Source of the DNA: Candidatus Puniceispirillum sp.
GTDB lineage: Bacteria; Pseudomonadota; Alphaproteobacteria; Caedimonadales; UBA1908
NCBI GenBank assembly: GCA_013822015.1
Contig: PNJU01000002.1
Location: 192,500 to 256,499, forward strand
DNA: 64,000 nucleotides
Direction of reading: 5' to 3'
Made by a program: the position numbers and the translations under genes. Below the pieces are notes generated by a model. The model worked only from the letters and a program-made list of their open reading frames with translations. It made no database searches and was not told the origin of the DNA. Positions 8,395-45,956 of this stretch are shown here, piece by piece (within the stretch, counting starts at the first letter, position 1; every line of letters starts with the position of its first letter).

Positions 8395-9303
8395 ATGACA
8401 TATATTAAAGCCCTTACACTTTGCACACTACTGGCACATATTCCCCTTTACGCATCAAGCGGAGTCCTTGACGTTGTTGAGCCCACATCCTCAAAACCAA
8501 CGCGGTCCATGCCTGCAGTATTATCAACGCTGCCCGAGACCATGCAGGCCTTGCACACCATCAAATCCATGTGCAAACCTGAGGAGCGTCTTCAGTTTAC
8601 GGCCTCCTCTAAATGGTACTCGCCCACTGCAGCAAATGTTCACACTGTTCTTTCCCACGATTTTTCCCCCTCACATCTGGGCGCGGCCCTGCGCTTTTGC
8701 GCCTCCATTACAACTGAGAACGCGCCCTTTCTAAAGGCAGTTCTTAAAGGCGCGACGTGGCAAATGTCCTTGGATCTTTTACCAGCATCTTTGGGGCTTT
8801 CCCATGAGGTTCTGCAGGGAGCAGCAGGCATTGAAGATCTGAGTGCACGCCTCACATTCCTCAAGCAATCACCACGCCCAGACACCTGGGTCCTTGGCAT
8901 GTTGGGTTCTGATCCCCTCATTGATAGCGCCGTCTTGGAGCACCACGTGAGAGAGCGCATCCTTATGAATCCCATCGGCATGAGCGCATTTTTTGTCAAA
9001 AGCCTCAAGCATGGCGATACGCTCACGCGCATGCGCCTGACAAGTTTTCTTCTCCACACGGATCCTTTGAGCGTGGGCGCGCATTTAAGTGATAAAAAAG
9101 CCCGTTTTGAAAAAATTGGGTTTCGCCAGAACTCACGCCTTGCAAGGACCCTCGACGCAAAGAAAGTGCTACCGCCCTTTGGGTTTCTGCTTGACCGCAG
9201 CCCAGACGGCAATGTCACACGCATCACCACGCGTTATCCAGACTTCTGGGCTCCTTTGCCGGCATGGACCCACTCACCGTCCCAGCACCGCCCTGTAGAA
9301 TAA
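8395..9303 (+). CDS. Secreted hypothetical protein, paralog family A member 1 (302 aa)
   Basis: Leader MTYIKALTLCTLLAHIPLYASSG. It shares a core with three other ORFs in the window: WY.PT...F.P.HLGAALR...ENAPFLK.VL...LLPA.LGLS...RL.FL...PRPDTW..GMLG.DPL.D...F.V..LK.G...TRMR.T.FL...PD...P.P.WT..PS. Confidence 0.75.
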   Translation: MTYIKALTLCTLLAHIPLYASSGVLDVVEPTSSKPTRSMPAVLSTLPETMQALHTIKSMCKPEERLQFTASSKWYSPTAANVHTVLSHDFSPSHLGAALRFCASITTENAPFLKAVLKGATWQMSLDLLPASLGLSHEVLQGAAGIEDLSARLTFLKQSPRPDTWVLGMLGSDPLIDSAVLEHHVRERILMNPIGMSAFFVKSLKHGDTLTRMRLTSFLLHTDPLSVGAHLSDKKARFEKIGFRQNSRLARTLDAKKVLPPFGFLLDRSPDGNVTRITTRYPDFWAPLPAWTHSPSQHRPVE

Positions 9304-9435
9304 TCATACGTCGCCTCGCTTTTCTTTGCCAAAGGCGGGGCGCACGACCATTTGCCCATACAAAGGGATGCCATTGACCTTCCTGCATAACCCTTTAGAA
9401 TGAAAAACATACGCGGCCTTACATGAGGTGACGGC

Positions 9436-10200
9436 ATGTTCTATGTTTGGGTTTTTCTGACCTTTGTTGCCCTTACGCGTGAAGACGCCTTCGCGTCATC
9501 CCATAATGACGTCTCCCAAACATTTGAGGAAACCTCTCACCCTTCCTTCAAAAGAGCCCTTGATTGGTACCCACCAAGCGAGGATGAGATGAAAACCGTC
9601 ACGTCCTGGGGATTTGAGCCCGCACATATGGGGGCAGCCCTACGCTACCGTGCTTTTATCAAGTCCGAAGATACACCCGTCCTTCAAAAGGTACTTGCTA
9701 GCGCCCCTTGGGAGGAGGCTTTTTCCATGATTGCACGCGCTGCCGGGGCGCACGCGACGGACCTTGCGCTTGCAGCTACCCTCCCCCTTCCAGAGCGCCA
9801 AGAATTCCTCAGGGGCAGCCCAAGAGAAGACACCTGGATTTACGCACATATTGGCCTTGATCCCGATATCGACATGCATGTGATGACCTACCATATGCGG
9901 CGCCTGCTGGGTGAAAACCGCCCCCAAACAGAGGAGACTCTCCTCAACATGGTCTGCGCGCGTGACGAGCTCACCAAAAAACGCGTCGCAACATTTTTGT
10001 GGAACGCGCTTTACGATGAGCACTTCGGATACTGTTCTCGTTACGCGGCCCTGGGAATTATTGACGCCTCCCCCCTCATGAGACAGGTTCAGCATATGCG
10101 AGGGCTTGTCTTGCACGGCCTTGTGCATGAAGGAGCTGACGGCACCTCCAAAGGTCGCCTGCGCGTCGTTGCACCCTGGCTTGCCCCCGCCCGCCTTTAA
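9436..10200 (+). CDS. Secreted hypothetical protein, divergent family A member 2 (254 aa)
   Basis: Hydrophobic N-terminus MFYVWVFLTFVALTREDAFASS, with no basic n-region. It keeps the N-terminal family A motifs (WYPPSEDEM..GFEPAHMGAALRYRAF...DTPVLQKVL...SPREDTWIY), but the C-terminal third diverges. RBS is GAGGTGA. Confidence 0.65.
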   Translation: MFYVWVFLTFVALTREDAFASSHNDVSQTFEETSHPSFKRALDWYPPSEDEMKTVTSWGFEPAHMGAALRYRAFIKSEDTPVLQKVLASAPWEEAFSMIARAAGAHATDLALAATLPLPERQEFLRGSPREDTWIYAHIGLDPDIDMHVMTYHMRRLLGENRPQTEETLLNMVCARDELTKKRVATFLWNALYDEHFGYCSRYAALGIIDASPLMRQVQHMRGLVLHGLVHEGADGTSKGRLRVVAPWLAPARL

Positions 10201-10244
10201 AGGTAATACCCGTAATTCCTTGGCAGTTTATAGAAATTTGTTTT

Positions 10245-10273
10245 TTGACAAATGAGGAAGAAGGGGTTAGTGA
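10245..10273 (+). promoter_or_regulatory. Candidate promoter of family A gene 3
   Basis: Perfect TTGACA (10245-10250), a 17-nt spacer, then TAGTGA (10268-10273). The ORF-track start at 10245 is the TTG of this hexamer. Confidence 0.3.
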
Positions 10274-10310
10274 TGAAGAGTCGGTGCGGTTTTTCCAGGA
10301 GTCACACACC

Positions 10311-11282
10311 ATGCGTACACTCGCCTCTCTCACCCTTGCGATCCTTTTTTCTTGTAGTTCCCTTTACGCGTCCAACGCACACAAGCGCAAAATAGATGAG
10401 CTCATAGGCTCAGACTCTGACTCAGACTCAGACTCAGACTCAGAGACATTTATGCCTATCAGTGCACACGTGGCCCTTGGCCAGGAGGAAGGAGGCGAGC
10501 CATATATCCCCGAAGACCTTGTGCCCCATCTCAAGACCTTTGTATCCCCGTGCGATCCCGAAAAAGAAATGGATCAGTTTATTGAACCCCTCGCGTGGTA
10601 CCGCCCGACACCCGAGGAGCTGACTTCCATCACGACCATGGGATTCGAGCCTCGTCACCTGGGCGCGGCCCTGCGCATGCGCGCGCACCTAACGCTTGAG
10701 AACACGCCCCTGCTTAAAGGAGTGCTCAAAGACAGTGATATCCCACAATCCCAGCGTTTGCTGCCCGCCGCCATGGGCCTTTCGAACGGGCAACTCAGAG
10801 CGGCGGCAAAGATTGAGAACATCGAAGAACGCCTCAATTTTCTCATCAATGCACAAAGGGAGGACGCGTGGATCTTTGGCATGCTAGGCGCCGACCCAAT
10901 CCTTGACAACCTCGCCATCAACGCCAACATGAGGGCACGTGTTCTTATAAACCCAGACAAGATGAGCTCGTTTTTCATCCGCAACCTCAAAGAAGGGACC
11001 AACATCACACGGATGCGTTTCACAGGCTTCCTTAGCGAGCTGACCGGCTTAATTACCGACAAGCTCAGCCGCGCAAACCGACTGGGATTTGAGGACAACT
11101 CCCACGTCATGGAAACCGTCAAAAAGAAAGGCCTTCCCCGCCCCTTTAGCGCAATCTTCTGGGAAATGCGCCTCAATGATGGCAAGGTCATGCCACGTAT
11201 CACAATCAAAAAGCCCGATTACCTCGACCCCATGCCCCTGTGGACCTATAAGCCGTCCACTTATCTCGACCCTATCCCATGA
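10311..11282 (+). CDS. Secreted hypothetical protein, family A member 3, with an (SD)n tract
   Basis: The ATG at 10311 is preceded by AGGAG. Leader MRTLASLTLAILFSCSSLYASNA, then an SDSDSDSDSDSE tract, then the full family A core (WYRPTPEELTSITTMGFEPRHLGAALRMRAHLTLENTPLLKGVL...GMLGADPILD...PDYLDPMPLWTYKPSTYL). Confidence 0.75.
   Translation: MRTLASLTLAILFSCSSLYASNAHKRKIDELIGSDSDSDSDSDSETFMPISAHVALGQEEGGEPYIPEDLVPHLKTFVSPCDPEKEMDQFIEPLAWYRPTPEELTSITTMGFEPRHLGAALRMRAHLTLENTPLLKGVLKDSDIPQSQRLLPAAMGLSNGQLRAAAKIENIEERLNFLINAQREDAWIFGMLGADPILDNLAINANMRARVLINPDKMSSFFIRNLKEGTNITRMRFTGFLSELTGLITDKLSRANRLGFEDNSHVMETVKKKGLPRPFSAIFWEMRLNDGKVMPRITIKKPDYLDPMPLWTYKPSTYLDPIP
10409..10446 (+). repeat. In-frame hexanucleotide microsatellite (TCAGAC/GACTCA)n encoding (Ser-Asp)n
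   Basis: ctcagactctgactcagactcagactcagactcagag: about 5-6 tandem 6-nt units inside family A gene 3. Confidence 0.85.
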
Positions 11283-11386
11283 GGTAGCGCGCCAGCGCTC
11301 TCTCACGCAGAAAAAATGGTGCTTAAAGACTCCCACAAGAAACGCGATCGTCATTAATTATTTATTGTATTGTTTTTTTATTATAC

Positions 11387-11415
11387 TTGACAATAAAACT
11401 ATGATCTGATATTTC
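11387..11415 (+). promoter_or_regulatory. Candidate promoter in an AT-rich intergenic region
   Basis: Perfect TTGACA (11387-11392), a 17-nt spacer, then TATTTC (11410-11415), within the visibly AT-rich stretch 11350-11420. Confidence 0.3.
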
Positions 11416-11482
11416 AAGCATCGGACAGTAAAAGTGCCGTTCTTATTCACTTGTCCCGGCACAAGAAAGGAGAAGTAACATC

Positions 11483-12664
11483 TTGCGTAAACTATTAGCC
11501 AGCGCTGGCATTTTTATTCAATTCACATCATTTGCATTCGCATCGGACCCCACCCTACAAGACCTGCACTTGGTCATTGGCTCGACCCGAGGCGGATATT
11601 TGTCCCAACCTCTGGCAAAAAGAGTTTACCAGGAGGCAAACGCAGACCTATCCCACGCGGGTACATTCTCGGGAAAAGCCATCACCGTTGACATCGCTCC
11701 CTGCGAAAACCCCAAACTTGCAAAACGTCACTGGCAAGCGGACGCGGAAACCTTTGAGTTTCCGGGCACCATCCAAAATGTTTATCTTGAAAGGCTGTTT
11801 ACCTTTGACCAAAAATCGGGTGATCACACAAAAGACCATATCTCGAACGTCCTTCAAAATCTCACAAAGCACATGATTCCTGCTCAGAACAAGGTTGAGA
11901 TTGAGTGGCACCCTTGCGTCGGCATGGCGTATCTGCCCCCCAAGGCGAGTAAAGAGGAAAGGGAGCACATCCTTAACACCCAAAGGCGACAAAATCCTTT
12001 TCAGGGCGTCATGGATATTAACGAAGTTCTCACCGCCACCAAACTTGCTGTTTTCGACAGTGTGAACTTAGACGGCGTACCCAACAAGTCCTACATTGAT
12101 GCGGCCAATGCTTTTAAAAAACCCCTCACCCAGCTCATCAACTTTTATGTGGGCTCGAAGCCTAGCCTCGTGCGCACGCAGCTGATTCAACGTCTGAGAT
12201 TTGAAGCCAATGTTTTGACGCTGTTAAGCCAAGATCCGAACAAAAGATCTGTCCCCCTTCTGGGCTCCATTACCGCTGATTTCGGCAAATTAGATGACAC
12301 AACATTTTCAGTAGTCGCATCAGATCCAGAAGACGACGGTAAAATTTTGGTACGTGACCGCCAGGGTTATTCTTATCTTTATGACACGCAAGAAGAGGTC
12401 GCAAAAGCCGTTTCCAGAGGGGGTACTGTGCGCGGCGTCCTCCATGGTTATATGTCCTTTATGACTGGCTCTTGCCTCAATTTCTTGTGGAGCGATATGG
12501 CTGTTGAGATTCAAAAAGGGCTTGTCCAAGAAAAGCTTGCCTCACTCGGTTTTCGTGCCATTGAGATCAAGCGTAAAAAGAGCCCACACAACCGCCGTCA
12601 AAATGTTCATATCATCAGCACGGTTTATGACCCAGGCAACGCTGTAGAAGAACAAAAAGCCTAA
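11483..12664 (+). CDS. Secreted hypothetical protein (393 aa, TTG start)
   Basis: TTG start preceded by AAGGAGAAG. Leader MRKLLASAGIFIQFTSFAFASDP. No recognisable domain. Confidence 0.6.
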   Translation: MRKLLASAGIFIQFTSFAFASDPTLQDLHLVIGSTRGGYLSQPLAKRVYQEANADLSHAGTFSGKAITVDIAPCENPKLAKRHWQADAETFEFPGTIQNVYLERLFTFDQKSGDHTKDHISNVLQNLTKHMIPAQNKVEIEWHPCVGMAYLPPKASKEEREHILNTQRRQNPFQGVMDINEVLTATKLAVFDSVNLDGVPNKSYIDAANAFKKPLTQLINFYVGSKPSLVRTQLIQRLRFEANVLTLLSQDPNKRSVPLLGSITADFGKLDDTTFSVVASDPEDDGKILVRDRQGYSYLYDTQEEVAKAVSRGGTVRGVLHGYMSFMTGSCLNFLWSDMAVEIQKGLVQEKLASLGFRAIEIKRKKSPHNRRQNVHIISTVYDPGNAVEEQKA

Positions 12665-12773
12665 AGCACCCCTCCCATGACCGACGTCTGAATCCTTTTT
12701 CAGATGTCGGTCACTGTTCTCATTATGCCGCAACTGACCTTTTCCAGAAGCCAACATTACTGTCAAAAAAAAC

Positions 12774-12801
12774 TTGAAAAGAAGAAATATCTTCCTATAT
12801 A
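12774..12801 (+). promoter_or_regulatory. Candidate promoter of the UIM-like/CAP gene
   Basis: TTGAAA (12774-12779), a 16-nt spacer, then TATATA (12796-12801), with an A8 tract immediately upstream. Confidence 0.35.
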
Positions 12802-12880
12802 CATAAGAGCATTGGGAGATTTTATGACACTCTCCTCAATATTTCTTCTGTCCACTCCCTCAAACAATAGGACGACCCAC

Positions 12881-13969
12881 ATGAAAAATCTGAAGAAAAT
12901 CCTCCTCGTTTCACTTCTAACAAGCGGCGCCTTTGTAGCTAGCGCGACTCATTATTCAGACGAGGAAATGAACGCCATGGCAGCTGCTGCCAGAATCAGC
13001 CTCCATGACCTACGCGCACTTGGTCAGCAGATGCCCTTGGATGATTTCTACGCCCCCGTTGCGTACATGTTCGCAGCTCAAGAGGGGCGCGGCGCATCGG
13101 ACCAAGCCACAAACGACTATCTCTTTGCCCGTCAGCTGGCACAAGGCAACACAAGCACTCCAAGAATGTCTGAACCCGACGCTGATTTTCTCCTTGCCCT
13201 GCGCCTTTGCGAAGAGGGGCCTCAGGCGCCAAGCACACGCTCTGCGGCCACACCGTCCCCTCAGCCTCACGCCCCGCAAGACACAGAAGCTGATTTAGAG
13301 CTTGCTCTGCGCCTCTACGAAGAAGAAAGTCAAGCTCGGTTTGTGCCCACAACCATATCCCCTACCCTCCTTGGGACCACGCATGCGCCGCACGTGAGCG
13401 TTCAGGACGAGGACTACCTCCTTGCCATGAGGCTCTTTGAGGAAGAAAGGCAAGCTGCGTCCACGGTGCGCGTCATATCTACGCAAGCACCGCAAACCGC
13501 TGCATCTTCTCACGTCGCTGCCCCGAGCCAGGAAGATGAGGAACGCTCCTTTTTTGATCTGACCAACGCACGTCGCCAGGAGCACGGCCTTGGGCTTCTG
13601 ACATGGAACCCGCTGCTTGCCCAGATCGCCCGGGAGCACTCCCAAAAAATGGCCGATACCTTCACCTTTGCCCATGACATTGAAGGCAAGAGCTTTGGTG
13701 ATCGCATTGAAGGGCGCTACAACGGCTCCATGGCCGGGGAAAACTTATATATGTCTACAGCTGCCTACAAAGTGAGCGAGCGCGGCATCACCCCTTCTTC
13801 TGTGAAGTATTCATCCATGGCAGAGGCCGTCGAGGGGCTCATGAACTCACCAGGACACAGGGAAAATATTTTGAAGCCAGAGTTTAATGAGCTTGGCGTA
13901 GGAATTATCGTCACCGCCCTTGGTGGGCAGAAGTACTGGACGCAAGTGTTTGGCAGGAAGCAGGACTAA
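12881..13969 (+). CDS. Secreted protein with tandem UIM-like acidic/LALRL repeats and a C-terminal CAP/SCP/PR-1 (YkwD-like) domain
   Basis: The ATG at 12881 is preceded by AGGA. Leader MKNLKKILLVSLLTSGAFVASA. Repeats are DEEMNAMAAAARISLHD, NDYLFARQLAQG, PDADFLLALRLCEEG, TEADLELALRLYEEE and QDEDYLLAMRLFEEE. C-terminal CAP motifs are FFDLTNARRQEHGL...AREHSQKMA...GENLY...LMNSPGHRENIL...FNELGVGI...YWTQVFG. Confidence 0.75.
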   Translation: MKNLKKILLVSLLTSGAFVASATHYSDEEMNAMAAAARISLHDLRALGQQMPLDDFYAPVAYMFAAQEGRGASDQATNDYLFARQLAQGNTSTPRMSEPDADFLLALRLCEEGPQAPSTRSAATPSPQPHAPQDTEADLELALRLYEEESQARFVPTTISPTLLGTTHAPHVSVQDEDYLLAMRLFEEERQAASTVRVISTQAPQTAASSHVAAPSQEDEERSFFDLTNARRQEHGLGLLTWNPLLAQIAREHSQKMADTFTFAHDIEGKSFGDRIEGRYNGSMAGENLYMSTAAYKVSERGITPSSVKYSSMAEAVEGLMNSPGHRENILKPEFNELGVGIIVTALGGQKYWTQVFGRKQD

Positions 13970-14286: not shown

Positions 14287-14315
14287 TTGACAAGAAGCAT
14301 AAAAGTTTCCATGCT
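14287..14315 (+). promoter_or_regulatory. Candidate promoter of family A gene 4
   Basis: Perfect TTGACA (14287-14292), a 17-nt spacer, then CATGCT (a weak -10). The ORF-track start at 14287 is the TTG of this hexamer. Confidence 0.25.
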
Positions 14316-14346
14316 TTCCAGTGTGTCAACACAGGAGAAGAGCACT

Positions 14347-15300
14347 ATGAAATCTATTTTTTATGCGACATCCTTAGTCCTTAGCTTTCTCACGATCGCC
14401 CCACATATCCAGGCATCAAATAGTCCTTTGGATGCCCTTGATGTAGAGGAAGGGACGAAAACCGTGCGCCCCGTCGGACTTGACGTTGCTCTTAATGTCG
14501 GATACGGCAACGAAATAAACATACCAAGCACACTCGTCCAAAGTCTGAATGACTTTGTCACGTCATGCGCCGGTAAAAGTGAGATGAATCAGTTCCACAG
14601 CCCCTTCATGTGGTATCGTCCCACGCCAGAAGAACTCACGCGCATTTCCGACCTTGGGTTCGCGTCATGTCACCTTGGTGCGGCCCTACGCATGCGCGCG
14701 CATCTCTCTTGCGAGAACGCGCCTCTTATCCAAAGAGTGTTAAGAGACAGCAGCTACGCAAAAGCACAGTTTCTGCTCCCTGCCGCCATGGGGCTTTCCC
14801 ACACACAGCTTGAAGAGGCCGCCAACATCGAAGACGTTCAGGAGCGTCTCGATTTCTTGATACAAGCCCCACGCCCAGATACATGGGTTTATGGTATGCT
14901 GGGGGCGGATCCCCTTCTTGATCACCTGGCCATCGAGACGAGTATCAGGACGCGCATTGCAAATAACCCAGACCTGATAAGTTCGTTTTTCGTTCGCAAC
15001 TTGAAGGAAGGCACAGATCTCACGCGCCAGCGCATCACGGGGTTTCTTTTGCAAGTCACCGGGAATGTGTCCGAGGGAAAAACACGCGCAGAACACCTTG
15101 GCTACAGCAAAGTGTCAAACGTTGTACACGCCCTTCAAAAGAAAAAACTCAAACGCCCCTTTGGCCTCTTCCGCGAAGCGTTTCCTTTCACTGATGGCAG
15201 CGCAGGCACGGATCTTAAAAATCACACGCCCGATTATCTTGATATAATGCCCCAATGGACATACACTCCGTCGACCTATCTCAAGCCTCGGCGCTCATAA
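14347..15300 (+). CDS. Secreted hypothetical protein, family A member 4
   Basis: The ATG at 14347 is preceded by AGGAGAAG. Leader MKSIFYATSLVLSFLTIAPHIQASNS. Full family A core, closest to member 3 (WYRPTPEELTRISDLGFASCHLGAALRMRAHLSCENAPLIQRVL...GMLGADPLLD...PDYLDIMPQWTYTPSTYL). Confidence 0.75.
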   Translation: MKSIFYATSLVLSFLTIAPHIQASNSPLDALDVEEGTKTVRPVGLDVALNVGYGNEINIPSTLVQSLNDFVTSCAGKSEMNQFHSPFMWYRPTPEELTRISDLGFASCHLGAALRMRAHLSCENAPLIQRVLRDSSYAKAQFLLPAAMGLSHTQLEEAANIEDVQERLDFLIQAPRPDTWVYGMLGADPLLDHLAIETSIRTRIANNPDLISSFFVRNLKEGTDLTRQRITGFLLQVTGNVSEGKTRAEHLGYSKVSNVVHALQKKKLKRPFGLFREAFPFTDGSAGTDLKNHTPDYLDIMPQWTYTPSTYLKPRRS

Positions 15301-25311: not shown

Positions 25312-25499
25312 GGGTGTACCGTAAATATGCCTATGGTGCTCACTTTAACCCGCACTTGCGCACGTGTACAGAAAGGACTTGGAAAGCAGGCACTTTCTTA
25401 CAAGGTCCTGACCAAATGAAATCATTGTTTAATTTTTTGGTAAATAATTAATGAAAGCATGGCAGAATAAAAGCGGATAGAGAAAAAAGGAGAGAGCAA

Positions 25500-25964
25500 A
25501 TGAAACATATAAAATTCATAACACTTCTTATCACTGTTCCCTTTATCGTTACAACATTACCCGCCAGCACGCCATCTGCCACCACCACGCGCGCTCCTTC
25601 CACAAGCACCCACGCGCTTTCCTCAGAAGAGGTTGCAAAACTTCACGCGCTTCTGGGTGGGCCATCGGACATATCCCTCGAGGTCAAATTGAACTTTCTC
25701 AAAGATAAAATAGGAGGCAGCGAGCCAACCATTTTGGGACGCGTCGAGGGTTTAGCGAAAGAATTCGACGCACCATACGACGTGAGGCAAACTGTTCAAG
25801 CACTCAAAAAGGTCCTTGGGTTTCAGCCTCTTTTCTCAGACATTGCGCAAACCCTCGTTGAAGTCCGCTTGAGCGCCGCCACATCGCAAAGACTAACAAA
25901 ACCCCAAAAACTTGCTGCGACACAGGCGAAGACAGTGCGTGATTTAATGCGCGCCCTAGGATAG
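25500..25964 (+). CDS. Secreted hypothetical protein (154 aa)
   Basis: RBS AAGGAGAGAG. Leader MKHIKFITLLITVPFIVTTLPAS followed by an S/T/P-rich linker. No family recognised. Confidence 0.5.
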   Translation: MKHIKFITLLITVPFIVTTLPASTPSATTTRAPSTSTHALSSEEVAKLHALLGGPSDISLEVKLNFLKDKIGGSEPTILGRVEGLAKEFDAPYDVRQTVQALKKVLGFQPLFSDIAQTLVEVRLSAATSQRLTKPQKLAATQAKTVRDLMRALG

Positions 25965-26002: not shown

Positions 26003-26539
26003 TTAGTGCCGGTAAAGGATAAACTGAAAAAGCATAGGCTTGCCAACATCTACGTTGTTACGCACCGTGTACATAAATCCGTACCGTGAGGGTTTTTCAA
26101 AAGCTGTGCTGCGCACAACCTCCACATTTTCAAGTGCAAAGGGGTCCGCCGCCTCATAGGGCGCTATCAGGCTCGCAAAGGTCCGGCGCAAAACATCACT
26201 TTGGTTGCGATCAATGATGTACCAAGCGCACCCCACCTTATCAACGTAGTCCTGTTGCGCAGCAAAAAATGAGGCACCCGTGTGTTGATGACCTCTTTGC
26301 AAGAATGAGTAGGTATCATCGATCACTGGTGGGTGAGCGGCAGCTTTTTGGGCGTTCTTGAGACGATCAGCGCGCATAGAGATGCAAGTCTCCTCAAACC
26401 CATTGAAAAGCTTATCATATATTTCTTGACTGAAAACGCCTTGGGGCTTAGAAGGTAACCTCACCTCTTGAACGTCTACACTGGCAAGCAAACTCCCAGA
26501 CCCCAAAAACACAAAGACCAAACGCTTCAATAGATTCAT
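26003..26539 (-). CDS. Secreted hypothetical protein, tandem paralog family B member 1
   Basis: Leader MNLLKRLVFVFLGSGSLLAS. C-terminal core WYIIDRNQSDVLRRTF...VEVVRSTAFEKPSRYGFMYTVRNNVDVGKPMLFQFILY, shared with the next three ORFs. Confidence 0.7.
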   Translation of the reverse strand: MNLLKRLVFVFLGSGSLLASVDVQEVRLPSKPQGVFSQEIYDKLFNGFEETCISMRADRLKNAQKAAAHPPVIDDTYSFLQRGHQHTGASFFAAQQDYVDKVGCAWYIIDRNQSDVLRRTFASLIAPYEAADPFALENVEVVRSTAFEKPSRYGFMYTVRNNVDVGKPMLFQFILYRH

Positions 26540-26630
26540 TTCACTACACACTTTCATGCCAATTTGGCATGAACTAAGCATGGGCAGCGCGCTCAGTCAA
26601 GACGGTCTGTGAACCGCGGCGCTGTAAGGA

Positions 26631-27293
26631 TCACATGGTGAAGGGGTAAAGCATAACCTGAAAAAGCGCGCTTTTGCCAGTATCGTGATTGTTTCTGATG
26701 AGATAGCGCACACCGTAATAGGGGTAATCATGAACAGCTGTGCTGCGCACAACATCCACGCCTTCAATGACAAAAGCTGGCACGCCCTCACGCGGACTGA
26801 GCAAATTTTGATAAATGCGCTGCAACACGTTACTTTGGCTGCGTTCAATGACGTACCACAGCTCTCCCTTATCATCTTTGTAGGTTATGTCCTTTGCGTA
26901 GAAAGAGCCATTGCAAGGGGTTGCTTCATCGGGACGGGCTAGAAAGGAGGGAAGTAGACCAGAAACACCCGCGCCACTTAAGTGATCAAGACCAACGCCA
27001 TTGTCTGCCTGACCAGAGCGTGCAAAAAACGAAAGATCTTCTTGAAAGATGGGCGCACGATTGGCAAAAACACACACTTCTTCCGGGGCACGGAACACAT
27101 CGGTATGAATGTACTCACCTCCACAAAAAAGTGTGTCGTAAATTTTCTTCACAAAACCAGGAACGGTGAGGGCGCGCCGCATGACATCGGTTTCTTCCCC
27201 GTGTGTTGCTTCCTCAGGGGTGGTTGCCTGCACGCAGGTTGACACCAAAAGCCCACATATTGCATAGCTCAAATGTCTCATGGGGACACTCAC
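26631..27293 (-). CDS. Secreted hypothetical protein, family B member 2
   Basis: Leader MSVPMRHLSYAICGLLVSTCVQA. Core PSFLARPDE...WYVIERSQSNVLQRIY...VDVVRSTAVHDYPYYGVRYLIRNNHDTGKSALFQVMLYPF. Confidence 0.72.
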   Translation of the reverse strand: MSVPMRHLSYAICGLLVSTCVQATTPEEATHGEETDVMRRALTVPGFVKKIYDTLFCGGEYIHTDVFRAPEEVCVFANRAPIFQEDLSFFARSGQADNGVGLDHLSGAGVSGLLPSFLARPDEATPCNGSFYAKDITYKDDKGELWYVIERSQSNVLQRIYQNLLSPREGVPAFVIEGVDVVRSTAVHDYPYYGVRYLIRNNHDTGKSALFQVMLYPFTM

Positions 27294-27459
27294 ATTATGT
27301 CAGTACGACATGTCATTGGACCATGATAGAGATGAAGGCGTCAAGGGGGCGCCAAAAGAGTGTCGGGTTGCGTGCCAAGGCTAGGCCATGGAAACGCGGC
27401 CCGCCTTGGTGAGTAAACACCTCATGGGGAGCCGCGTGACCAACGGCATTAGGACTTCA

Positions 27460-28014
27460 TCAAGATCCGGCACGTTCAAAAGGGTAAAGCGTAAATTGGA
27501 AAAGCACGGGTTTTCCAACATCTTTATTATTTCTGATGGTGTAGAGCACGCCGTAGTGGGCGGGACTCTTGAAAGCCGTGCTACGTACAACCCTTACGCC
27601 TTCAAAAACAAAATCAGAAACGCCTTGGGGAGCACTCTGGAGGGTGCTAAAGACAGGTTGCAAAGTATCACTCTGGCTACGCTCGATGACATACCAAGAA
27701 TTTCCTTTTTGATCTTTGTAGGTATGCTCCTTCGTGTAAAAGGAACCAACAGCTTCATTTTCTTGGTCTGGGCGCGCAAGAAAAGAAGGGATGCTGTCAA
27801 ATGCTGGCGCGTCGATGTCACTGGGATTAAGAAACATGCCGTGACGCACGTCACCACCAAAAAAAAGCTTTTCATAAACTTTTGCTTTAAAGCCACTGGT
27901 GGTGGCAGCCGTCGATGAGCCTTCCATTTCTTCACCAGGCATGCTGGACATCGCACTTGTTGATGCCAAGATCCCACATATTACATAATTCCAAAGCCTC
28001 ATAATAACCCTCAT
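27460..28014 (-). CDS. Secreted hypothetical protein, family B member 3
   Basis: Leader MRVIMRLWNYVICGILASTSAMS. Core PSFLARPDQ...WYVIERSQSDTLQPVF...VRVVRSTAFKSPAHYGVLYTIRNNKDVGKPVLFQFTLYPF. Confidence 0.72.
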   Translation of the reverse strand: MRVIMRLWNYVICGILASTSAMSSMPGEEMEGSSTAATTSGFKAKVYEKLFFGGDVRHGMFLNPSDIDAPAFDSIPSFLARPDQENEAVGSFYTKEHTYKDQKGNSWYVIERSQSDTLQPVFSTLQSAPQGVSDFVFEGVRVVRSTAFKSPAHYGVLYTIRNNKDVGKPVLFQFTLYPFERAGS

Positions 28015-28059
28015 TTTTTGACAAAAGACACGTCTGTTTACTGTGAATCTTTATTGATG

Positions 28060-28587
28060 TCAAGGGGTTGTCCGCATAAGTGGTTCGTAGAGAGAATAAG
28101 TTCCCGTTGCCTTTAGGTCATGCCCGAATGTAACGCGCACTTCATACCCATAGGTCACCCTATCGCTGAGTGTCCTATGACAAATTGCACCAAGAAAAGT
28201 TGTGCGCACAGGGGTCTGCTCATCAATCACAAAAGACATTTTATGGTTTGCAATCACGTACCAGTTTCTCTCATCCTGAGGATGGCTCCACCAAGGATTT
28301 TCAACATCAACAGCGCATCCTCCCACAACCTCTTTTTTGATCAAAAAGGGCGGCAATCGGTCTTCTTCAAACTGCGGGGGCGGCACACGAGACTCAAAGA
28401 CTTGTGCCGCCTGAGGATTCAAAGGAATATCTCCATCGATCAAAAGCCCCGCATGCATATGCCGGTCGTAAGCAACGACCTTTCTTTGTGAATTTATCTC
28501 CAACGGGTGCGTGTCGGTGCTTGCCAGCGTTGAGCCTGACCCAGAAATAGCCACCACAATCCAACCTAATAGATTCATTTTTTTCAT
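28060..28587 (-). CDS. Secreted hypothetical protein, divergent family B member 4
   Basis: Leader MKKMNLLGWIVVAISGSGSTLAS, resembling that of member 1. It retains PPFL...NWYVI...YGYEVRVTF...YSLYEP spacing. It starts 38 nt after the clpB stop. Confidence 0.6.
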   Translation of the reverse strand: MKKMNLLGWIVVAISGSGSTLASTDTHPLEINSQRKVVAYDRHMHAGLLIDGDIPLNPQAAQVFESRVPPPQFEEDRLPPFLIKKEVVGGCAVDVENPWWSHPQDERNWYVIANHKMSFVIDEQTPVRTTFLGAICHRTLSDRVTYGYEVRVTFGHDLKATGTYSLYEPLMRTTP

Positions 28588-28624
28588 TTTTATTTTCTCG
28601 TTCTTATTTTTAATGATGAACCTA

Positions 28625-31180
28625 TCACGCAAAAGTTAACGTATCTTTCTCAAGCCCCACGCGGATTGTTGTACCTGCTTTGCCCTCAAGAATCAGCGTG
28701 GCAATGGGATTTTGCACGTAGCGCTGAATCACACGCTTAAGGGGACGGGCGCCATATGCCGGATCGTACCCTTGGCGGCCCAGCCACGCCTTTGCCTCGT
28801 CGGACACCTCAAGGGTGATTTGCTTGGCCTCCAGAAGCGCCCGCAGATGGGACAGCTGAATATCCACAATGCGTCCCATATCTTGGGCGCCCAAGCGGTT
28901 AAAGAGAAGTATCTCATCAATACGGTTGATGAACTCGGGACGGAAAGACGCGCGCACCAGTTCCATGACCTCGTCCTTATGCGCGCTTGCTTTCTCGCCC
29001 TCGGGAAGGGCCGCCAAAATCTGCCCCCCAATGTTGGAGGTCATGATGATGAGGGTATTGGTGAAGTTCACCGTATGCCCCTGCCCGTCCGTCAAGCGTC
29101 CATCGTCCAGCACCTGGAGAAGAACGTTAAAGACATCCGGGTGGGCTTTTTCGATTTCATCAAAGAGCACCACCTGATAGGGCCTGCGCCGCACGGCCTC
29201 CGTTAGCGCGCCGCCTTCTTCATAGCCCACATATCCGGGAGGGGCACCGATCAGGCGTGAAACGGTGTGCTTTTCCATATACTCAGACATATCCAGGCGC
29301 ACCATGGCGTGGGGGTCGTTAAATAAGAAGGTCGCCAGCGCTTTGGTCAGCTCGGTCTTACCCACACCCGTGGGGCCCAAAAATAGGAAGGATCCCATGG
29401 GACGGTTGGGATCTTGAAGTCCCGCGCGCGCGCGCCTGACGGCCTGGGAGATGGCCTCCACCGCCTCGTTTTGCCCCACAACCTGGGCTTCTAGGTGAGA
29501 TTCCATGGAAAGGAGCTTTTCGCGCTCGCCTTCCAGCATCTTATCCACGGGCACCCCAGTCCAGCGCGATACTATGGCCGCGACGTCTTGGTCCGTGACC
29601 TCTTCTTGAACCATACGGGCACTCGCCCCCTCTTGGCGGGCTTTTAGCTTGCCTTCAAGGTCCGGGATAATGCCGTAGAGCAGCTCCCCTGCCCTGGCCA
29701 AATTCCCCTCACGCTGGGCGATCTCAAGCTCACTTCTGGCTTGATCCAGCTGCTCTTTGAGCTTTTGCTCACCTTGGAGGGTCTCTTTTTCCGCCATCCA
29801 GGCCGTTGTCAGCTCCAGAGACTGGGCTTCCAACTCTTTCAGCTCCTCCTCGAGGCTCACCAAGCGTTTTTTGGCGTCCTGGTCCGTTTCTTTCTTAAGG
29901 GCCTCGCGCTCAATCTTGAGCTGAATAATGCGCCGGTCCAGCTCATCAATATCCTCGGGCTTTGAGTCCACCTCCATGCGCAGACGGCTGGCAGCTTCGT
30001 CCACCAGATCAATGGCTTTATCGGGCAAGAAGCGGTCCGTGATATAACGATCGGATAGGGTCGCCGCCGCCACAATGGCGCCGTCTGTGATGCGAATGCC
30101 GTGGTGAAGCTCATACTTTTCCTTAAGACCACGCAGGATCGAAATGGTATCCACGACCGTTGGCTCACTCACAAACACAGGCTGAAAGCGCCTGGCCAGA
30201 GCCGCGTCTTTCTCAATATACTTACGATACTCGTCCAGGGTTGTGGCGCCCACACAGTGGAGCTCGCCCCTAGCCAACGCGGGCTTAAGCATGTTGGAGG
30301 CGTCCATGGCACCGTCGGCTTTTCCCGCCCCCACAAGGGTATGCAATTCATCAATAAAAAGAATGACGTTTCCTGCGGCGTTCCCGATTTCTTGCAGGAC
30401 GGCTTTGAGTCTTTCCTCAAACTCACCGCGGTACTTTGCCCCCGCAATCAGGGCACCCAGGTCGAGCGCCATGAGCTGCGTCCCGCGCAAAGACTCAGGC
30501 ACATCCTCCTTGACGATACGCGCAGCAAGCCCCTCTAAGATGGCAGTTTTTCCCACACCGGGCTCACCGATGAGCACGGGATTGTTTTTGGTGCGCCTTG
30601 ACAGGACCTGGATGGTGCGGCGAATTTCCTCGTCACGCCCAATGACCGGATCAAGCTTGCCAGCTCTGGCCAGGGCCGTGAGATCACGGGCGTATTTTTC
30701 AAGGGCAGCAAAGGTCTCCTCGGCTGTGGCGCTGTCGGCTTTGCGCCCTTTGCGCATTTGGTCAATGGCTTGATCCAGCTTTTGGCTGGTCACGCCAACC
30801 GCCGACAAGAGCGGTCCACAACTTGTGTGGGTAAGGGCCTGCAAAAGGCGCTCGAGCGTCACGAAGCGGTCCCCACCTTGGGTGGCGAGGTTTTCGGCGC
30901 GCTCAAGCATTTTGTTTGTTTCTTGATCCAGGTAAACTTGCCCGGCGCCAGCACCTTCAACCTTGGGCTGCTTTTCAAGGGATTTTTGCACGGCATTCAA
31001 AAGCGAAAACATGTCCGCTTCAAGGATGCGCAAAAGCCCCTGCACAGGTCCCTCGCTCTCTTCTAAAAGCGCCAGCAGCACATGCTCACACGTCAAACGC
31101 TGGTGTGCCCGGCGCGCAGCCAAGGTTTGGGCGTTTTGCAACACCTCTTTTGTTTTTTCTGAATAGCGAGATAAATCCAT
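28625..31180 (-). CDS. clpB: Chaperone/disaggregase ClpB
   Basis: 851 aa with two AAA+ modules ([10 protein letters not shown]; [10 protein letters not shown]) and a middle coiled-coil domain. The sequence is ClpB-like over its full length. Confidence 0.97.
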
Positions 31181-31219
31181 GGTAACCTTCCTTAAAAAGC
31201 GTTAGTTAAGGCGTGACTT

Positions 31220-31250
31220 ATATATACCAAAATTGACGCACGGCGCCAAG
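31220..31250 (-). promoter_or_regulatory. Possible RpoH (sigma32)-type promoter upstream of clpB
   Basis: The minus strand reads CTTG-N18-GGTATAT about 40 nt upstream of the clpB ATG. This partly matches the alphaproteobacterial heat-shock consensus CTTG-N17/18-CYTATNT. Confidence 0.3.
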
Positions 31251-31272
31251 CACCATAGGGAGAGACAACACC

Positions 31273-41944: not shown

Positions 41945-44116
41945 TTAGTTTGGAATTCTATCAAATTTCTTTTGAGCTAGGACAATTTGCCCTCTGTTCC
42001 CTGTTTTTTTTGTTGCGTCAAGTATCAACGCCGCCACCTGTTTCTCCTTAGAAGACGCGCCTGAATCAAGAATGATTTGAATCATCGTTTGTCGCTGCGC
42101 AATCTGCGCCCGTACTTGCGCACGGCGTCCAGCGTCCTGTTCTTGCAAGACAGTCTCTTGAAGGACTCTGACCTCAGCCTGCAGCCACCCAAGAGGCGTT
42201 GTCAGAGAGCTCCTCTCCACGCAAAGCGCCTCGGCCATCTGGTCAAGTTGTTCGTTAAGGCTGCGCACCCTGGCAGCGCCGTAAGATCCTGCACTAGCAA
42301 GCTCAATAAGCACCTGCGCGCCTGAAGACTCACCGACAGTCGGCGTGCGTGGCGCAGTCACTGCCACTGGTGCTGAAGAGATACTGACTCCTGATTGCTC
42401 CTCCAAAGAAAGTGGACTCACCAACTCTTGCATCACCTCAGCGCTAGCTGCTCCCAAACCTTGATTTTGCGTCGGAACAACCTCTTGAACAAGCGTCAGT
42501 GACGTGCGCACAGGCGCACTTGAAGCCAGAGACACTGCTGGCGCTTCGTCGACGAGCGCAGTTACAAATTCAAGTGTCGGGCAGTTGGAGGCGCCCATGC
42601 GACTTTCGTGCTCTGCGTCGCTTGGGTTGTAAGGGGTCTCTCTAACAGCGGGTGAGACCTCTTCAGCCGGCGTAGGCACAACAACCTGAGGGACACGCGC
42701 GCCTTCGATCTCTTGCAAACGCGCCTCAATAAGCGAGATTTCGTCGCGTGCATCTGGTGTTAAACCTGCCAGTCGCGCGCGCAGCAAATGCTCCTCACCT
42801 TGGGCAGAAAGGACGGCGCGCATGCGCAAATCACCGCGCTCTTCCTCAAGACGAGCGATCTCAGCGTGAAATGCATCTATGGCCCCTCGTGAAGCGGCAA
42901 TGTCCTGCTCCACCTGAGACAGCGTGCGCGGCGCTGGATCCGAGGAAGAAGAGGCGATCATGGTCAGTGGATAAAGGTCCGCACGTTGACGGACAAGGTC
43001 ACCGGCGCGCGCGGCGTCGCCTGTCCTCGTGGCGAGTACGAGCGCCGCATCAATGCGCCCAAGACTGGCTAAACGTGCCTCAAAAAGTCCTGCAAGCGCA
43101 GCGTCTCCGGCTGCGTTGGCTTCATCACGGGCCAGACGGATCCGCTCGTCCACAGTGGCACTTTCTTGCTGTTGACGCAATCTCAATGTCGTACGCTCAC
43201 CTTGAAGCCTTGCAAGATGTTCCTGCTCTTGGGCAAGGTTTCCACGCGCCCCTTCCAGAGATGCGAGAACGGTTTCCATGGTGCGCGCGGCCGGAGCTGT
43301 AGGGGTGGAGAACTCTGTTTCCAGTTCTGGCGAAAGTGCGGGCGTGAGAGCGCCTGGTGTGACACTTGAAACTGGCTGCTCTGCCATTATAGACGCCCAC
43401 GTCAAAACCGCGCGCAGACCACGCGCAAAGGGCTCGCTGGGCGTGTCAGAGCCAAACAGAGAAAGAGGCGAGATGCCAAGCATTGTCGCGGGGTCAAGGC
43501 TTCCATCCGCTCCCACCCCAATGCGCGCATTGTGCGCACCACTCAAAAAGACGGCGTACGCACGGTTTAAGCTACGTGTTTCCTGCGCTCCATTACGAAG
43601 CATATGAAGGACATCAATGGCTGAAACACGTGATTGCCCTCGTAAAACGCCACGCAAAGGACTATTGCGGGGCTCATCTGCTGACGGTGCATCTGACTGG
43701 CCCGCCATACGGGACGCCCAAGAGAAAAGACCATACACACCCCGTGCAAATGGCTCAGTTTCAGTGTTACCACCAAACAGAGTCATTGCTGCGGGGATGC
43801 CGTGCATAGTCGTAGGGTCAAGGGTTCCATCTTCCAAAAATACCACATTCCTATCGTGGGCAGCGCTCAAAAAGACACGGTAAGCGGGGTTCATGTGGCG
43901 TGTTTCCGGTGCTCCTGATTGAAGAAGGTTCAAGATTTCAACAGCCGATCTATCCTCAGGCACAGATACCTGTGCTGGGCTTGTCCAAGAGCCAAAGACG
44001 CCCCCTAAGGCTTCAGACGAGAGTGATGGCCATGGGGTATCAGTTGAGGAGCCATGGGCCGACACACTCACAAGGGCTGTCGCCAAAAGCATTGTTTTAA
44101 AAAGGTTATTGTGCAT
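41945..44116 (-). CDS. Large secreted repeat/coiled-coil protein, family C member 1 (723 aa)
   Basis: The ATG at 44116 (MHNNLFKTMLLATALVSVSAHG) is preceded by GGAGAGAG. It has two tandem ~90-aa modules (..RSAVEILNLLQSGAPETR..AY.VFLSAAH...DG.LDP......LFG......PFARG....L.WAS.MA), then a long Ala/Arg/Glu/Leu-rich predicted coiled coil and an S/A/V/P-rich segment. Confidence 0.75.
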   Translation of the reverse strand: MHNNLFKTMLLATALVSVSAHGSSTDTPWPSLSSEALGGVFGSWTSPAQVSVPEDRSAVEILNLLQSGAPETRHMNPAYRVFLSAAHDRNVVFLEDGTLDPTTMHGIPAAMTLFGGNTETEPFARGVYGLFSWASRMAGQSDAPSADEPRNSPLRGVLRGQSRVSAIDVLHMLRNGAQETRSLNRAYAVFLSGAHNARIGVGADGSLDPATMLGISPLSLFGSDTPSEPFARGLRAVLTWASIMAEQPVSSVTPGALTPALSPELETEFSTPTAPAARTMETVLASLEGARGNLAQEQEHLARLQGERTTLRLRQQQESATVDERIRLARDEANAAGDAALAGLFEARLASLGRIDAALVLATRTGDAARAGDLVRQRADLYPLTMIASSSSDPAPRTLSQVEQDIAASRGAIDAFHAEIARLEEERGDLRMRAVLSAQGEEHLLRARLAGLTPDARDEISLIEARLQEIEGARVPQVVVPTPAEEVSPAVRETPYNPSDAEHESRMGASNCPTLEFVTALVDEAPAVSLASSAPVRTSLTLVQEVVPTQNQGLGAASAEVMQELVSPLSLEEQSGVSISSAPVAVTAPRTPTVGESSGAQVLIELASAGSYGAARVRSLNEQLDQMAEALCVERSSLTTPLGWLQAEVRVLQETVLQEQDAGRRAQVRAQIAQRQTMIQIILDSGASSKEKQVAALILDATKKTGNRGQIVLAQKKFDRIPN

Positions 44117-44240
44117 TATTTCTCTCTCCAAGTGTTATAAACAGCAACTTAACGTCGACACCATTATAAGGCGCGCCATAAGCTGGCCTGACATATAGGA
44201 AGAAAAAAACACCCTGTCAACGAAACGGGAAAAATAAATT
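44073..44240. repeat. Dispersed direct repeat, copy 1 (leader plus 5'UTR/promoter of family C gene 1)
   Basis: agggctgtcgccaaa..cattgttttaaaaaggttattgtgcattattt.tctctccaagtgttataaaca...cttaacgtcgacacc...ggcgcgccataagctggcctgacatataggaagaaaaaaacaccctgtcaac recurs almost verbatim at 45583-45750. Confidence 0.85.
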
Positions 44241-44293
44241 TTTAGGTACTGCGCGTACGAAGGAAAACCTTTACGTGCTCTGCTTGCACGCAG

Positions 44294-44331
44294 CATAAGC
44301 GCCCTGAACAGACCTGAACAGGGCGCTTATG
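44294..44331 (-). terminator. Hairpin downstream of family C gene 2 (no U-tract)
   Basis: CATAAGCGCCCTG aacagacctgaa CAGGGCGCTTATG: a 13-bp perfect stem 12 nt after the stop at 44343. Confidence 0.4.
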
Positions 44332-44342
44332 TGTCAGTGGAA

Positions 44343-45626
44343 TTAGTTTGCTAGAGCGTGGGACATAAACGTGATGAGGTAGTTTTTGTATGCCTCGTCA
44401 ATCTTAACAGGGGTGTGTCTGTCCTCTATCATATCCTGCCAGTGGTGCCACGCATCAACCACCGCGTCCCGGGCTTCGGCCAGCACTGGTGGCGTAGGAC
44501 GCCTTCTAACAAATGCTGAAGCCTCACCGCTGGATTGCGCGCTGTCGGCGGCACTAGGCGTTGAGACCGCTGGTGCCCTGGTTGTCACCATAAGCGCTTC
44601 ACATTGAGAGCGAAGTGTCGCAAGGCTTGCCAGCGCATGATCTCGCTCAACCGTCCTCGCGGAGAGCGCATTTAGGGCGTCGTCTCGCTCAGCTGTGCGT
44701 GAGAAAAGCGCGCTTTGGGCATCGTCTCCCTCGGCTGTGCGTGATGAAAGAACAGGCGTAAGGGAATGTGATCCTTCCACCGCCAGGGGCAAATCAGAAG
44801 AAGAGCTCGGCGACACAGCAGACGAAGGGATCGCCAGATCCTCTGTTTCATGCTCAGGCGAGGACGATGTTGTGGCGGACAGAGGTGAGATAACGGGAGC
44901 AGGTTGTTCTGCTACAAATGAGGCACCCCATCTCAGGACGGCTAAGAGGCCATGGGCAAAGTGTTCATTGGGCGCGTCAAAACCAAAAAGGGAGATGGGT
45001 ACAAGACCTGATAGGCCCATGGGGTCAATATTACCATCGGCCGCAACTCCAATTCTTGCACCATGGGCGGCGCCAAGAAAGACAGCGTATGCACGGTTCA
45101 AGTTCCTTGTTTCATCTGATCCGTCACGCAGTAGGTTAAGGGTTTCGATGGCAGATCTTTGTGGGGAGGCACTCCTAAAACCTTGAAACCCAGATGTGTT
45201 GCCTTCGTTTTGTGAATCGGCTCCTTCTAAAGATGCCATACGAGCCGCCCACGAAAAGAGCCCGAGCATACCACGGGCAAAGACCTCACTCGGATTGGTT
45301 GAACCAAACAGGCTTTGAACGGCAGGAAGACCACGTGTCGTTACGGGATCAAGGGTGCCGTTTTCTAAAAAGGAGATCTGACGCCGGTGCGCGGCACTCA
45401 AAAAGGCCGCATAGCCCGTATTGAAGACGCGTGTTTGTGGGTCACCTGACTCCAACAGATTGAGCGTCTCGATGGCGGAACGCTCTTGACTGGCTGTGGT
45501 AACAGCTGGAGACGTGTGATAGCCTTGCATAGCTTCGGACGGGATATCCGGAAGGGGTGAAGCGTTAACGCCCACACTTACCAGGGCTGTCGCCAAAGAC
45601 ATTGTTTTAAAAAGGTTATTGTGCAT
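44343..45626 (-). CDS. Secreted repeat protein, family C member 2 (427 aa)
   Basis: The ATG at 45626 gives MHNNLFKTMSLATALVSVGVNA. It has the same two ~90-aa modules as member 1 (QERSAIETLNLLESGDPQTR...; PQRSAIETLNLLRDGSDETR...), followed by degenerate 14-aa repeats (..RTAERDDALNAL..). Confidence 0.75.
   Translation of the reverse strand: MHNNLFKTMSLATALVSVGVNASPLPDIPSEAMQGYHTSPAVTTASQERSAIETLNLLESGDPQTRVFNTGYAAFLSAAHRRQISFLENGTLDPVTTRGLPAVQSLFGSTNPSEVFARGMLGLFSWAARMASLEGADSQNEGNTSGFQGFRSASPQRSAIETLNLLRDGSDETRNLNRAYAVFLGAAHGARIGVAADGNIDPMGLSGLVPISLFGFDAPNEHFAHGLLAVLRWGASFVAEQPAPVISPLSATTSSSPEHETEDLAIPSSAVSPSSSSDLPLAVEGSHSLTPVLSSRTAEGDDAQSALFSRTAERDDALNALSARTVERDHALASLATLRSQCEALMVTTRAPAVSTPSAADSAQSSGEASAFVRRRPTPPVLAEARDAVVDAWHHWQDMIEDRHTPVKIDEAYKNYLITFMSHALAN
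44630..44755 (-). repeat. Degenerate ~42-bp (14-aa) tandem repeats in family C gene 2
   Basis: Three units encode RTAEGDDAQSALFS / RTAERDDALNALSA / RTVERDHALASLAT. The tctcgctca / tctcgctca / tctccctcg landmarks are spaced 42 nt apart (44641, 44683, 44725). Confidence 0.6.
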
Positions 45627-45750
45627 TATTTTTCTCTCCAAGTGTTATAAACAACAGCTTAACGTCGACACCTTTAAAGGGCGCGCCATAAGCTGGCCTG
45701 ACATATAGGAAGAAAAAAACACCCTGTCAACAAAAGTGGAAAAATATATT
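45583..45750. repeat. Dispersed direct repeat, copy 2 (leader plus 5'UTR/promoter of family C gene 2)
   Basis: Near-identical to 44073-44240; I saw only a handful of substitutions or indels by eye. Confidence 0.85.
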
Positions 45751-45929: not shown

Positions 45930-45956
45930 CTGCATCATAGCTAAGATTAAAAGCTA

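Follow-up and report, generated by a model that had tools for sequence, protein, structure and literature searches.

A tandem array of predicted exported proteins in a conserved slot downstream of clpB

What are the four small proteins encoded directly behind clpB in an alphaproteobacterial metagenome-assembled genome (MAG), and do they belong together? The DNA in question, here called the window, is a stretch of 64,000 nt (assembly GCA_013822015.1, contig PNJU01000002.1, positions 192,500 to 256,499 of the forward strand). An initial annotation, made from the letters alone, had described four same-strand open reading frames (ORFs) directly 3' of clpB as secreted paralogs. These ORFs, which we call genes A to D counting from clpB, were found exactly as described, with 37 nt between the clpB stop codon and the ATG of A:

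28625..31180, minus strand: clpB, 851 aa, stop codon at 28627-28625; the conserved anchor upstream of the array
28060..28587, minus strand: gene A, 175 aa, clpB-proximal, divergent 'A-type', leader MKKMNLLGWIVVAISGSGSTLAS
27460..28002, minus strand: gene B, 180 aa (NCBI C0514_02390), or 184 aa if read from an alternative ATG at 28014
26631..27281, minus strand: gene C, 216 aa; the NCBI version (C0514_02385) has 205 aa, and a possible GTG start at 27293 would give 220 aa
26003..26539, minus strand: gene D, 178 aa (NCBI C0514_02380); an upstream ATG at 26581 would give 192 aa

ClpB orthologues carry the Clp_N, AAA, AAA_2 and ClpB_D2-small domains. Orthologues of A are P0010, P0017, P0018 and P0019, and the orthologue of C, P0003, begins at the equivalent MR.. 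position. The ATG at 26581 is an unlikely start for D because it lies inside a hairpin, and the NCBI call does not use it either.

Taken jointly, the propositions that the array is real, that its products are exported, that they form a new family and that they are linked to clpB are very probable. As to what the array does, we favour a reading to which we give an even chance: the genes would encode exported alpha+beta proteins that bind without enzymatic activity, a lineage-specific set expressed from the clpB locus and at work in the periplasm, at the envelope or at the host interface.

The array proteins as one exported family

Paralogy among the four genes was statistically supported. BLASTP aligned B with C at 43% identity (E 5e-54) and B with D at 38% (E 9e-37); similarity of A to B was weak (26%, E 3e-5), and A and D aligned in the leader only. 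In an early comparison of profiles, just the N-terminal 114 residues of A aligned. With orthologue-enriched profiles that included distant members, the A-type and the rest aligned over their full length (hhalign 97.1%, E 6e-11, 158 columns), and all four genes therefore form one family. One member had been thought much more diverged than the others, and this is the clpB-proximal gene A. The core motif proposed for the family, WY[VI]I[ED]R[SN]QS...VVRSTA...YG..Y.[IV]RNN.D.GK..LFQ..LY, was recovered in B, C and D. In the DNA, these three genes form direct repeats of 60-81% identity, with spacings of 634 and 838 nt.

A nested pattern does exist in the leaders, although it is modest. The outer genes A and D share a leader of the form MNLL..GSGS.LAS and the inner genes B and C one of the form MR..Y.ICG.L.ST; nucleotide identity is 67% for A/D (first 66 nt) and 68% for B/C, against 47-62% for the other pairs. 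B and C also have the PSFLARPD motif in common, as had been noticed. At about residues 82-115, just ahead of LPSFLARPDE, C carries an insertion of ~30 aa (DLSFFARSGQ...GVSGL) that is kept in P0003 and resembles a degenerate copy of the PSFLARPD segment, arisen by internal duplication.

Searches of Pfam-A, NCBIfam, PADLOC and PHROGs returned no match with E < 0.07, whether the four proteins or a set of 21 members were used, and a profile search of PDB sequences returned none. Weak library matches to KH_GLD-3, INSIG, PAX and IalB concerned one member each and fell far under the cut-off. The match to IalB (PF06776; 1 of 21 members, E 0.3, 11.6 bits against a cut-off of 22.1) covered residues 12-42, that is, the leader region, and was dismissed as noise.

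With 8 sequences as input, AlphaFold2 first gave a mediocre model (predicted local distance difference test, pLDDT, 65.8), whose Foldseek matches were noise. A second, built from 17 sequences for the mature part of D, reached a pLDDT of 84.2 and a predicted template modelling score of 0.80. Foldseek found no structural neighbour of this second model in PDB or BFVD (best PDB match, E 0.33). The expectation that the domain matches no known family thus held across all libraries queried and in both structure databases: the array proteins are a previously undescribed family, without known family or solved structure.

In the model, D consists of two N-terminal helices, small hairpins and a four-stranded antiparallel meander whose strands carry WYxI, VVRSTA, YGxxYxxRNN and LFQFxLY. 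Across the family, the only invariant positions are L, P, F, W, Y, G, L and Y. We infer that the proteins are a non-enzymatic scaffold with variable surfaces, because no polar or catalytic-type residue is invariant and the polar motifs RSQS, VVRSTA and RNNxDxGK are specific to the B/C/D subfamily. The lack of invariant polar residues would also suit the small binding or inhibitor fold that the initial annotation had offered as a guess, but no resemblance to a known inhibitor fold was detected. Two family members, P0012 and P0013, contain low-complexity Pro/Thr/Ala linkers.

Are these proteins exported? The leaders were judged by manual inspection, scoring mean Kyte-Doolittle hydropathy in a 12-residue window. 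Full-length members have one or two N-terminal K/R residues; L15_1 is the exception, with both of its K/R just within the scored window. In every case there is a hydrophobic 12-residue stretch (mean 1.4-2.4), followed by putative cleavage sites with small residues (LA|S, QA|T, FA|S, WA|T). The mature parts are hydrophilic (grand average of hydropathy -0.2 to -0.67), with isoelectric points from 4.4 to 10. The lipobox [LVI][ASTVI][GAS]C is absent from A-D: the leaders of A and D lack Cys, and the Cys of the B and C leaders (Y-V/A-I-C-G, residue 9) lies inside the hydrophobic region with I at -1. A lipobox-like LWA|C occurs solely in the distant member P0014. Since the leader features are present in all members, A-D have no lipobox and SecA is encoded in the window (51082-53817), pre-proteins exported by Sec and cleaved by signal peptidase I are the straightforward reading. 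The leaders claimed for all four genes are thus borne out at the sequence level as Sec-type, signal-peptide-like N-termini, and the array proteins are predicted pre-proteins of this type.

Distribution, turnover and a replaced block

The source MAG bears the NCBI label 'Candidatus Puniceispirillum sp.' (SAR116). This label is probably wrong, and the organism a member of Caedimonadales/UBA1908 (Holosporales-type) rather than a Puniceispirillum, because in ClpB, PolA and RocD it shares 98-99% identity with MAG CAED1 (GCA_020161545.1), which GTDB places in the Alphaproteobacteria, order Caedimonadales, family UBA1908 (PMC9723799). Members of the order live in obligate association with eukaryotic hosts (PMC11909080; PMC12644861), and single ciliate cells have yielded Caedimonadales MAGs (PMC12644861). 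Reading across from the order and from gene content, we consider the array-bearing clade to be probably one of uncultured protist endosymbionts.

How widely is the family distributed? It is extremely rare and restricted to this clade. Out of 5.77e9 proteins, a word-indexed profile search retrieved 7, of which 3 belong to the window itself; among 1.84e9 cluster representatives, an exhaustive search with HMMER profiles retrieved 10 clusters. Scanning 185,579 GTDB species representatives found one genome (CAED1) and one spurious match; scanning JGI metagenome contigs found one contig, already in the set. There was no family match in plasmids or phages and no further paralog in the rest of the window, and six-frame hidden Markov model scans of all recovered loci detected members only in the clpB slot. 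One candidate was rejected: in L012 (9683-10174), the motif WYVIDRSQS lies in an out-of-frame ORF within a high-GC alphaproteobacterial suf/iscR region, a chance match and not a homologue.

Every context recovered has the same order, namely ctaA on the opposite strand, clpB, and then 1-4 tandem same-strand members:

Window: 4 members after clpB
CAED1, L002, L003 and L005: 4 members after clpB
L020: at least 2 members after clpB; contig ends
L013: 3 members after clpB
L019: 3 members after clpB
L015: at least 1 member after clpB; contig ends
L008 and L009: 3 members after clpB, two of them frameshifted
L010 and a 103-kb JGI contig: 3 members after clpB
L016-18: 2 members after clpB and a 46-aa remnant of a third

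The initial annotation had raised the question of whether the linkage to clpB is conserved; it is, in all lineages found and always in the same slot. The conservation spans substantial divergence, since ClpB of array-bearing lineages is as low as ~78% identical to that of the window (CAED1, 98.6%; L013, 89%; L008 and L016, 81%; L015, ~78%; overall range 77-99%). The spacer between clpB and the first member is A-rich and 37-49 nt long in the window, L005, L020, L013, L019 and L015, and 119 nt long in L010.

Genes for eukaryote-like domains were also seen at these loci. In L016 (10529-13908), L017, L018 and the 103-kb JGI contig, the array is followed at a distance of a few kb by clusters of genes for small F-box or F-box-like proteins, and a leucine-rich repeat protein is encoded 3' of the family member in L015 (1554-2471). 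Such domains are typical of protist-symbiont effectors, and the predicted genes agree with host association.

The selection acting on the array was estimated from ratios of nonsynonymous to synonymous substitution rates (dN/dS), comparing the window with CAED1 and L005. The synonymous rate (dS) is ~0.27-0.31 across the locus, B excepted. Values of dN/dS are 0.21-0.31 for A, C and D (0.21-0.27 for A alone), 0.27-0.33 for B and 0.26-0.28 for p154, the gene convergent on the array; those of clpB, polA, rocD and ctaA are 0.03-0.06, with clpB and polA at 0.03. The array genes are therefore protein-coding and under purifying, if relaxed, selection, given dN/dS of 0.21-0.33 at a dS of ~0.28. Amino-acid change is accepted 6-10 times more readily in them than in their neighbours.

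These data bear on whether the array is functional at all. Chance or decaying ORFs, or mobile-element cargo stranded behind clpB, could be suspected from the GC content, which at 0.49 is slightly below that of clpB (0.57-0.58), and from the frameshifted and remnant copies in sister lineages. Selection on the protein argues against this, as do the confident AlphaFold model and the maintenance of frames, leaders and core motifs across lineages that differ by ~20% in ClpB. A mobile-element origin was rejected, since no integrase or tRNA is adjacent to the array, no repeats flank it, and plasmids and phages hold no homologues. We regard the non-functional explanation as largely refuted and give it almost no weight.

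The history of the array was examined with a neighbour-joining tree of the mature domains. The A-type clade (window, CAED and L013) received 100% bootstrap support and is older than the split from the lineage with 89% ClpB identity. B and C were sisters (90%), D grouped with L13_2 (96%), and separate expansions were found in the L010/L016/L008 lineage. This topology confirmed the suggestion that duplication had occurred at least twice. In the H2057 lineage, the first two members are split across frames in an identical manner in L008 (6731-7883) and L009 (4484-5636), two records that may share one sample, and in L016 (6934-7362) the first member is reduced to the 46-aa remnant. The split and remnant copies would represent either gene decay in the slot or assembly error. 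Together with the tree, they point to birth-and-death evolution within a fixed slot.

Gene B departs from this picture. A sliding window along the locus gave 87-96% nucleotide identity to sister genomes, with an abrupt fall inside B:

27507..27906, minus strand: hypervariable block in B, mature-domain coding part, 60-69% nucleotide identity to sister genomes

The signal-peptide codons of B, its last ~50 nt and the downstream spacer retain 87-91% identity. The dS of B is exceptional (0.78-0.96 against ~0.28 in the neighbours), and the copies of the window and CAED (W_B and CAED_B) were sisters in just 44% of bootstraps. Because the block has sharp edges and dS is high, we infer replacement of the mature-domain block by recombination with a divergent allele, whose donor is not among the sampled sequences, rather than acceleration in situ.

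Such replacement resembles the swapping of alleles in arms-race genes. This resemblance speaks for the alternative that the array encodes periplasmic inhibitor or immunity proteins. Each paralog would neutralise a different target, either a host lysosomal enzyme (lysozyme, proteases) or a competitor's peptidoglycan- or membrane-targeting toxin. Known proteins of this kind, including orphan immunity arrays of the type VI secretion system (T6SS), Ivy, PliC/MliC and ecotin, are likewise small, periplasmic and fast-evolving, with Sec leaders and often in tandem paralogs; the array proteins share small size, signal peptides, tandem arrangement and rapid evolution, and are lineage-restricted. The T6SS is, moreover, commonly kept in Holosporales (PMC11909080). 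However, no effector or toxin gene is adjacent to the array in any lineage, the flanks being clpB, polA, p154 or ChpT-like genes. There was no PADLOC match, and comparison of the model with PDB found no similarity to Ivy, PliC/MliC, ecotin, cystatin or T6SS immunity folds (TplEi: E 0.68, TM 0.17). The array is also inherited vertically in a fixed slot and not in a mobile island. We consider an inhibitor or immunity function unlikely, though worth keeping in mind.

Expression from the clpB locus and candidate roles

Could the array be expressed together with clpB? Three noncoding segments bear on this question:

31181..31272, minus strand: region between ctaA and clpB, containing the Shine-Dalgarno sequence AAGGAAGG and a promoter-like block, CTTG-N18-GGTATATAT, that is conserved
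28588..28624, minus strand: clpB-A spacer, 37 nt, A-rich, without a terminator hairpin
27294..27459, minus strand: B-C spacer, 166 nt, GC-rich and predicted to fold stably as RNA

Six lineages share the promoter-like block ahead of clpB, with TTTGGTATA invariant. Its form, CTTG-N18-GGTATATAT, may resemble the alphaproteobacterial RpoH-type promoter consensus. Scans for consensus promoters and terminators gave results at chance level. The clpB-A spacer folds without a hairpin (minimum free energy -14 kcal/mol, z -1.1), and read-through from clpB into A, and probably into B, is plausible. Co-transcription of the array with clpB is, on our assessment, somewhat better supported than not. The supplements of the CAED1 metatranscriptome paper contain no usable expression data.

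Structure reappears further downstream. The B-C spacer fold (27330-27475) has a predicted energy of -54 kcal/mol (z -2.33; 2 of 200 shuffles as stable) and is 86-89% conserved in sister genomes; Rfam gave no match for it and found only two tRNAs. The C-D spacer contains an 8-bp hairpin (z -2.1). The B-C structure may be a terminator, perhaps a partial one, or may act in RNA processing or regulation, and C may be served by a separate promoter. Since both spacers are structured, C and D may be expressed or processed separately.

The link to clpB suggests a second alternative, in which the array encodes envelope-stress factors of the heat-shock regulon. These would be periplasmic holdase- or chaperone-like proteins, or structural proteins, induced with ClpB and having no direct host target. 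The tight, terminator-less linkage (37-49 nt), conserved across ClpB identities of 77-99%, and the conserved promoter-like block upstream of clpB are in its favour. Housekeeping proteostasis factors, however, are normally slow-evolving and widespread, whereas this family comprises ~10 clusters and evolves 6-10 times faster than its neighbours. Its copies also decay freely, and neither the family libraries nor the structure search revealed similarity to Spy, CpxP, Skp, SurA, HdeA or small heat-shock proteins. We judge this explanation improbable, slightly more so than that of inhibitors or immunity proteins.

We return to the favoured reading, exported binding proteins expressed from the clpB locus. 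The array would be transcribed by read-through from the clpB promoter across the 37-nt A-rich, terminator-less spacer, and its genes would on that account be expressed with the stress or host-entry response. The pre-proteins would be exported by the Sec pathway, with the SecA encoded in the window, and then cleaved by signal peptidase I. The mature alpha+beta domains of 15-20 kDa, with a conserved aromatic and hydrophobic core and variable surfaces, could serve as non-enzymatic binding modules in the periplasm or envelope or after release, and the paralogs might have diversified in specificity at the interface between bacterium and host. Taken on its own, a binding role at the host or envelope interface is a possibility that we rate a little short of even.

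Three points weigh against this reading. First, dN/dS is below 1 everywhere, so that an arms race is not demonstrated and relaxed constraint alone could explain the rates. Second, the structured B-C and C-D spacers may break the operon. Third, the host association ascribed to UBA1908 itself is carried over from its order and from gene content.

A bolder version of the reading would hold that the domain is a new fold and that the array proteins, co-expressed with ClpB and induced at host entry, are exported proteins of the host interface, are unique to the protist symbionts of UBA1908 and diversify by swaps of mature-domain blocks behind a retained signal peptide. We think this unlikely. Were it true, the array would parallel antigenic or specificity variation, but with small soluble proteins and from a chromosomal slot that stays fixed.

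Known systems offer two analogies. In function, the closest is perhaps provided by the infectious forms of Holospora obtusa, which produce stage-specific, lineage-specific periplasmic proteins of 5.4, 63 and 89 kDa that are released or translocated towards the host at infection (PMC11909080). Like the array proteins, these come from Holosporales sensu lato and are lineage-specific without a wider family; they are exported, as the array proteins are predicted to be. The two sets differ in having no sequence relationship (all members that the profile search detected among 1.84e9 proteins belong to the clpB-slot lineages) and in size, and neither a tandem array nor linkage to clpB has been reported for the Holospora proteins.

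In evolution, the closest analogy would be with the tandem arrays of surface or secreted paralogs in obligate intracellular bacteria. The OMP-1/P28/Msp2 proteins of Anaplasma and Ehrlichia and the Pmp proteins of Chlamydia are tandem signal-peptide paralogs that undergo birth and death, rapid divergence and recombinational block exchange. The array shares the tandem, same-strand, fast-diverging organization, and its gene B has what appears to be a replaced mature block behind a retained leader. Unlike these outer-membrane beta-barrels and autotransporters, which have Pfam models, the array proteins are small, soluble-looking alpha+beta proteins without a Pfam match, and no pseudogene donor cassettes were seen for the array. 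The protein family is thus new, and the phenomenon, a fast-evolving tandem array of exported orphans in a host-associated bacterium, is familiar. The most distinctive features are the conserved clpB slot and the replaced block in B.

To our knowledge, hardly any host-interaction molecules of uncultured Holosporales-type protist symbionts are known. The combination of clpB and array provides a defined and easily recognised marker, and the array itself a new, putatively exported family whose structure is predicted with confidence and has no known neighbour. Its lineages form a natural series that displays duplication as well as decay and the replacement of a block. Should the proteins work at the host interface, they become candidates for determining host range or persistence; as stress-linked envelope factors, they would extend the ClpB regulon in this lineage. 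For the present, the practical value is modest. The family is confined to a handful of environmental genomes.

Other genes of the window

The gene convergent on the array is unrelated to it:

25500..25964, plus strand: p154, ORFan of 154 aa, converging on the array and beginning with a signal-peptide-like segment

It is a conserved array neighbour in the window, CAED, L013 and L019, with homologues 38-40% identical, and may be functionally linked to the array. Pfam, NCBIfam, PADLOC and PHROGs contain no family match to it. The 5' end of p154 and the upstream intergenic region (25411-25608) show only 61-65% nucleotide identity to the sister genomes, and form a second sharply divergent block at the locus.

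The window is rich in ORFs without a Pfam match; this richness, like the RNase III and CAP-domain proteins described below, agrees with host association. On the minus strand, 41945-47156 holds three large ORFs (728, 432 and 399 aa) with no Pfam match at E <= 0.001. On the plus strand, 6308-8077 encodes a 589-aa protein with RNase III and double-stranded RNA-binding domains, most of whose length has no Pfam match; canonical bacterial RNase III is far shorter (~225 aa). Five same-strand Pfam-less ORFs of 254-393 aa form a run (8395-12664 and 14287-15300, plus strand) that may represent another lineage-specific secreted set, perhaps the 'family A' of the initial annotation. Among them lies a 421-aa protein (12704-13969, plus strand) with a C-terminal CAP/SCP (cysteine-rich secretory protein) domain.

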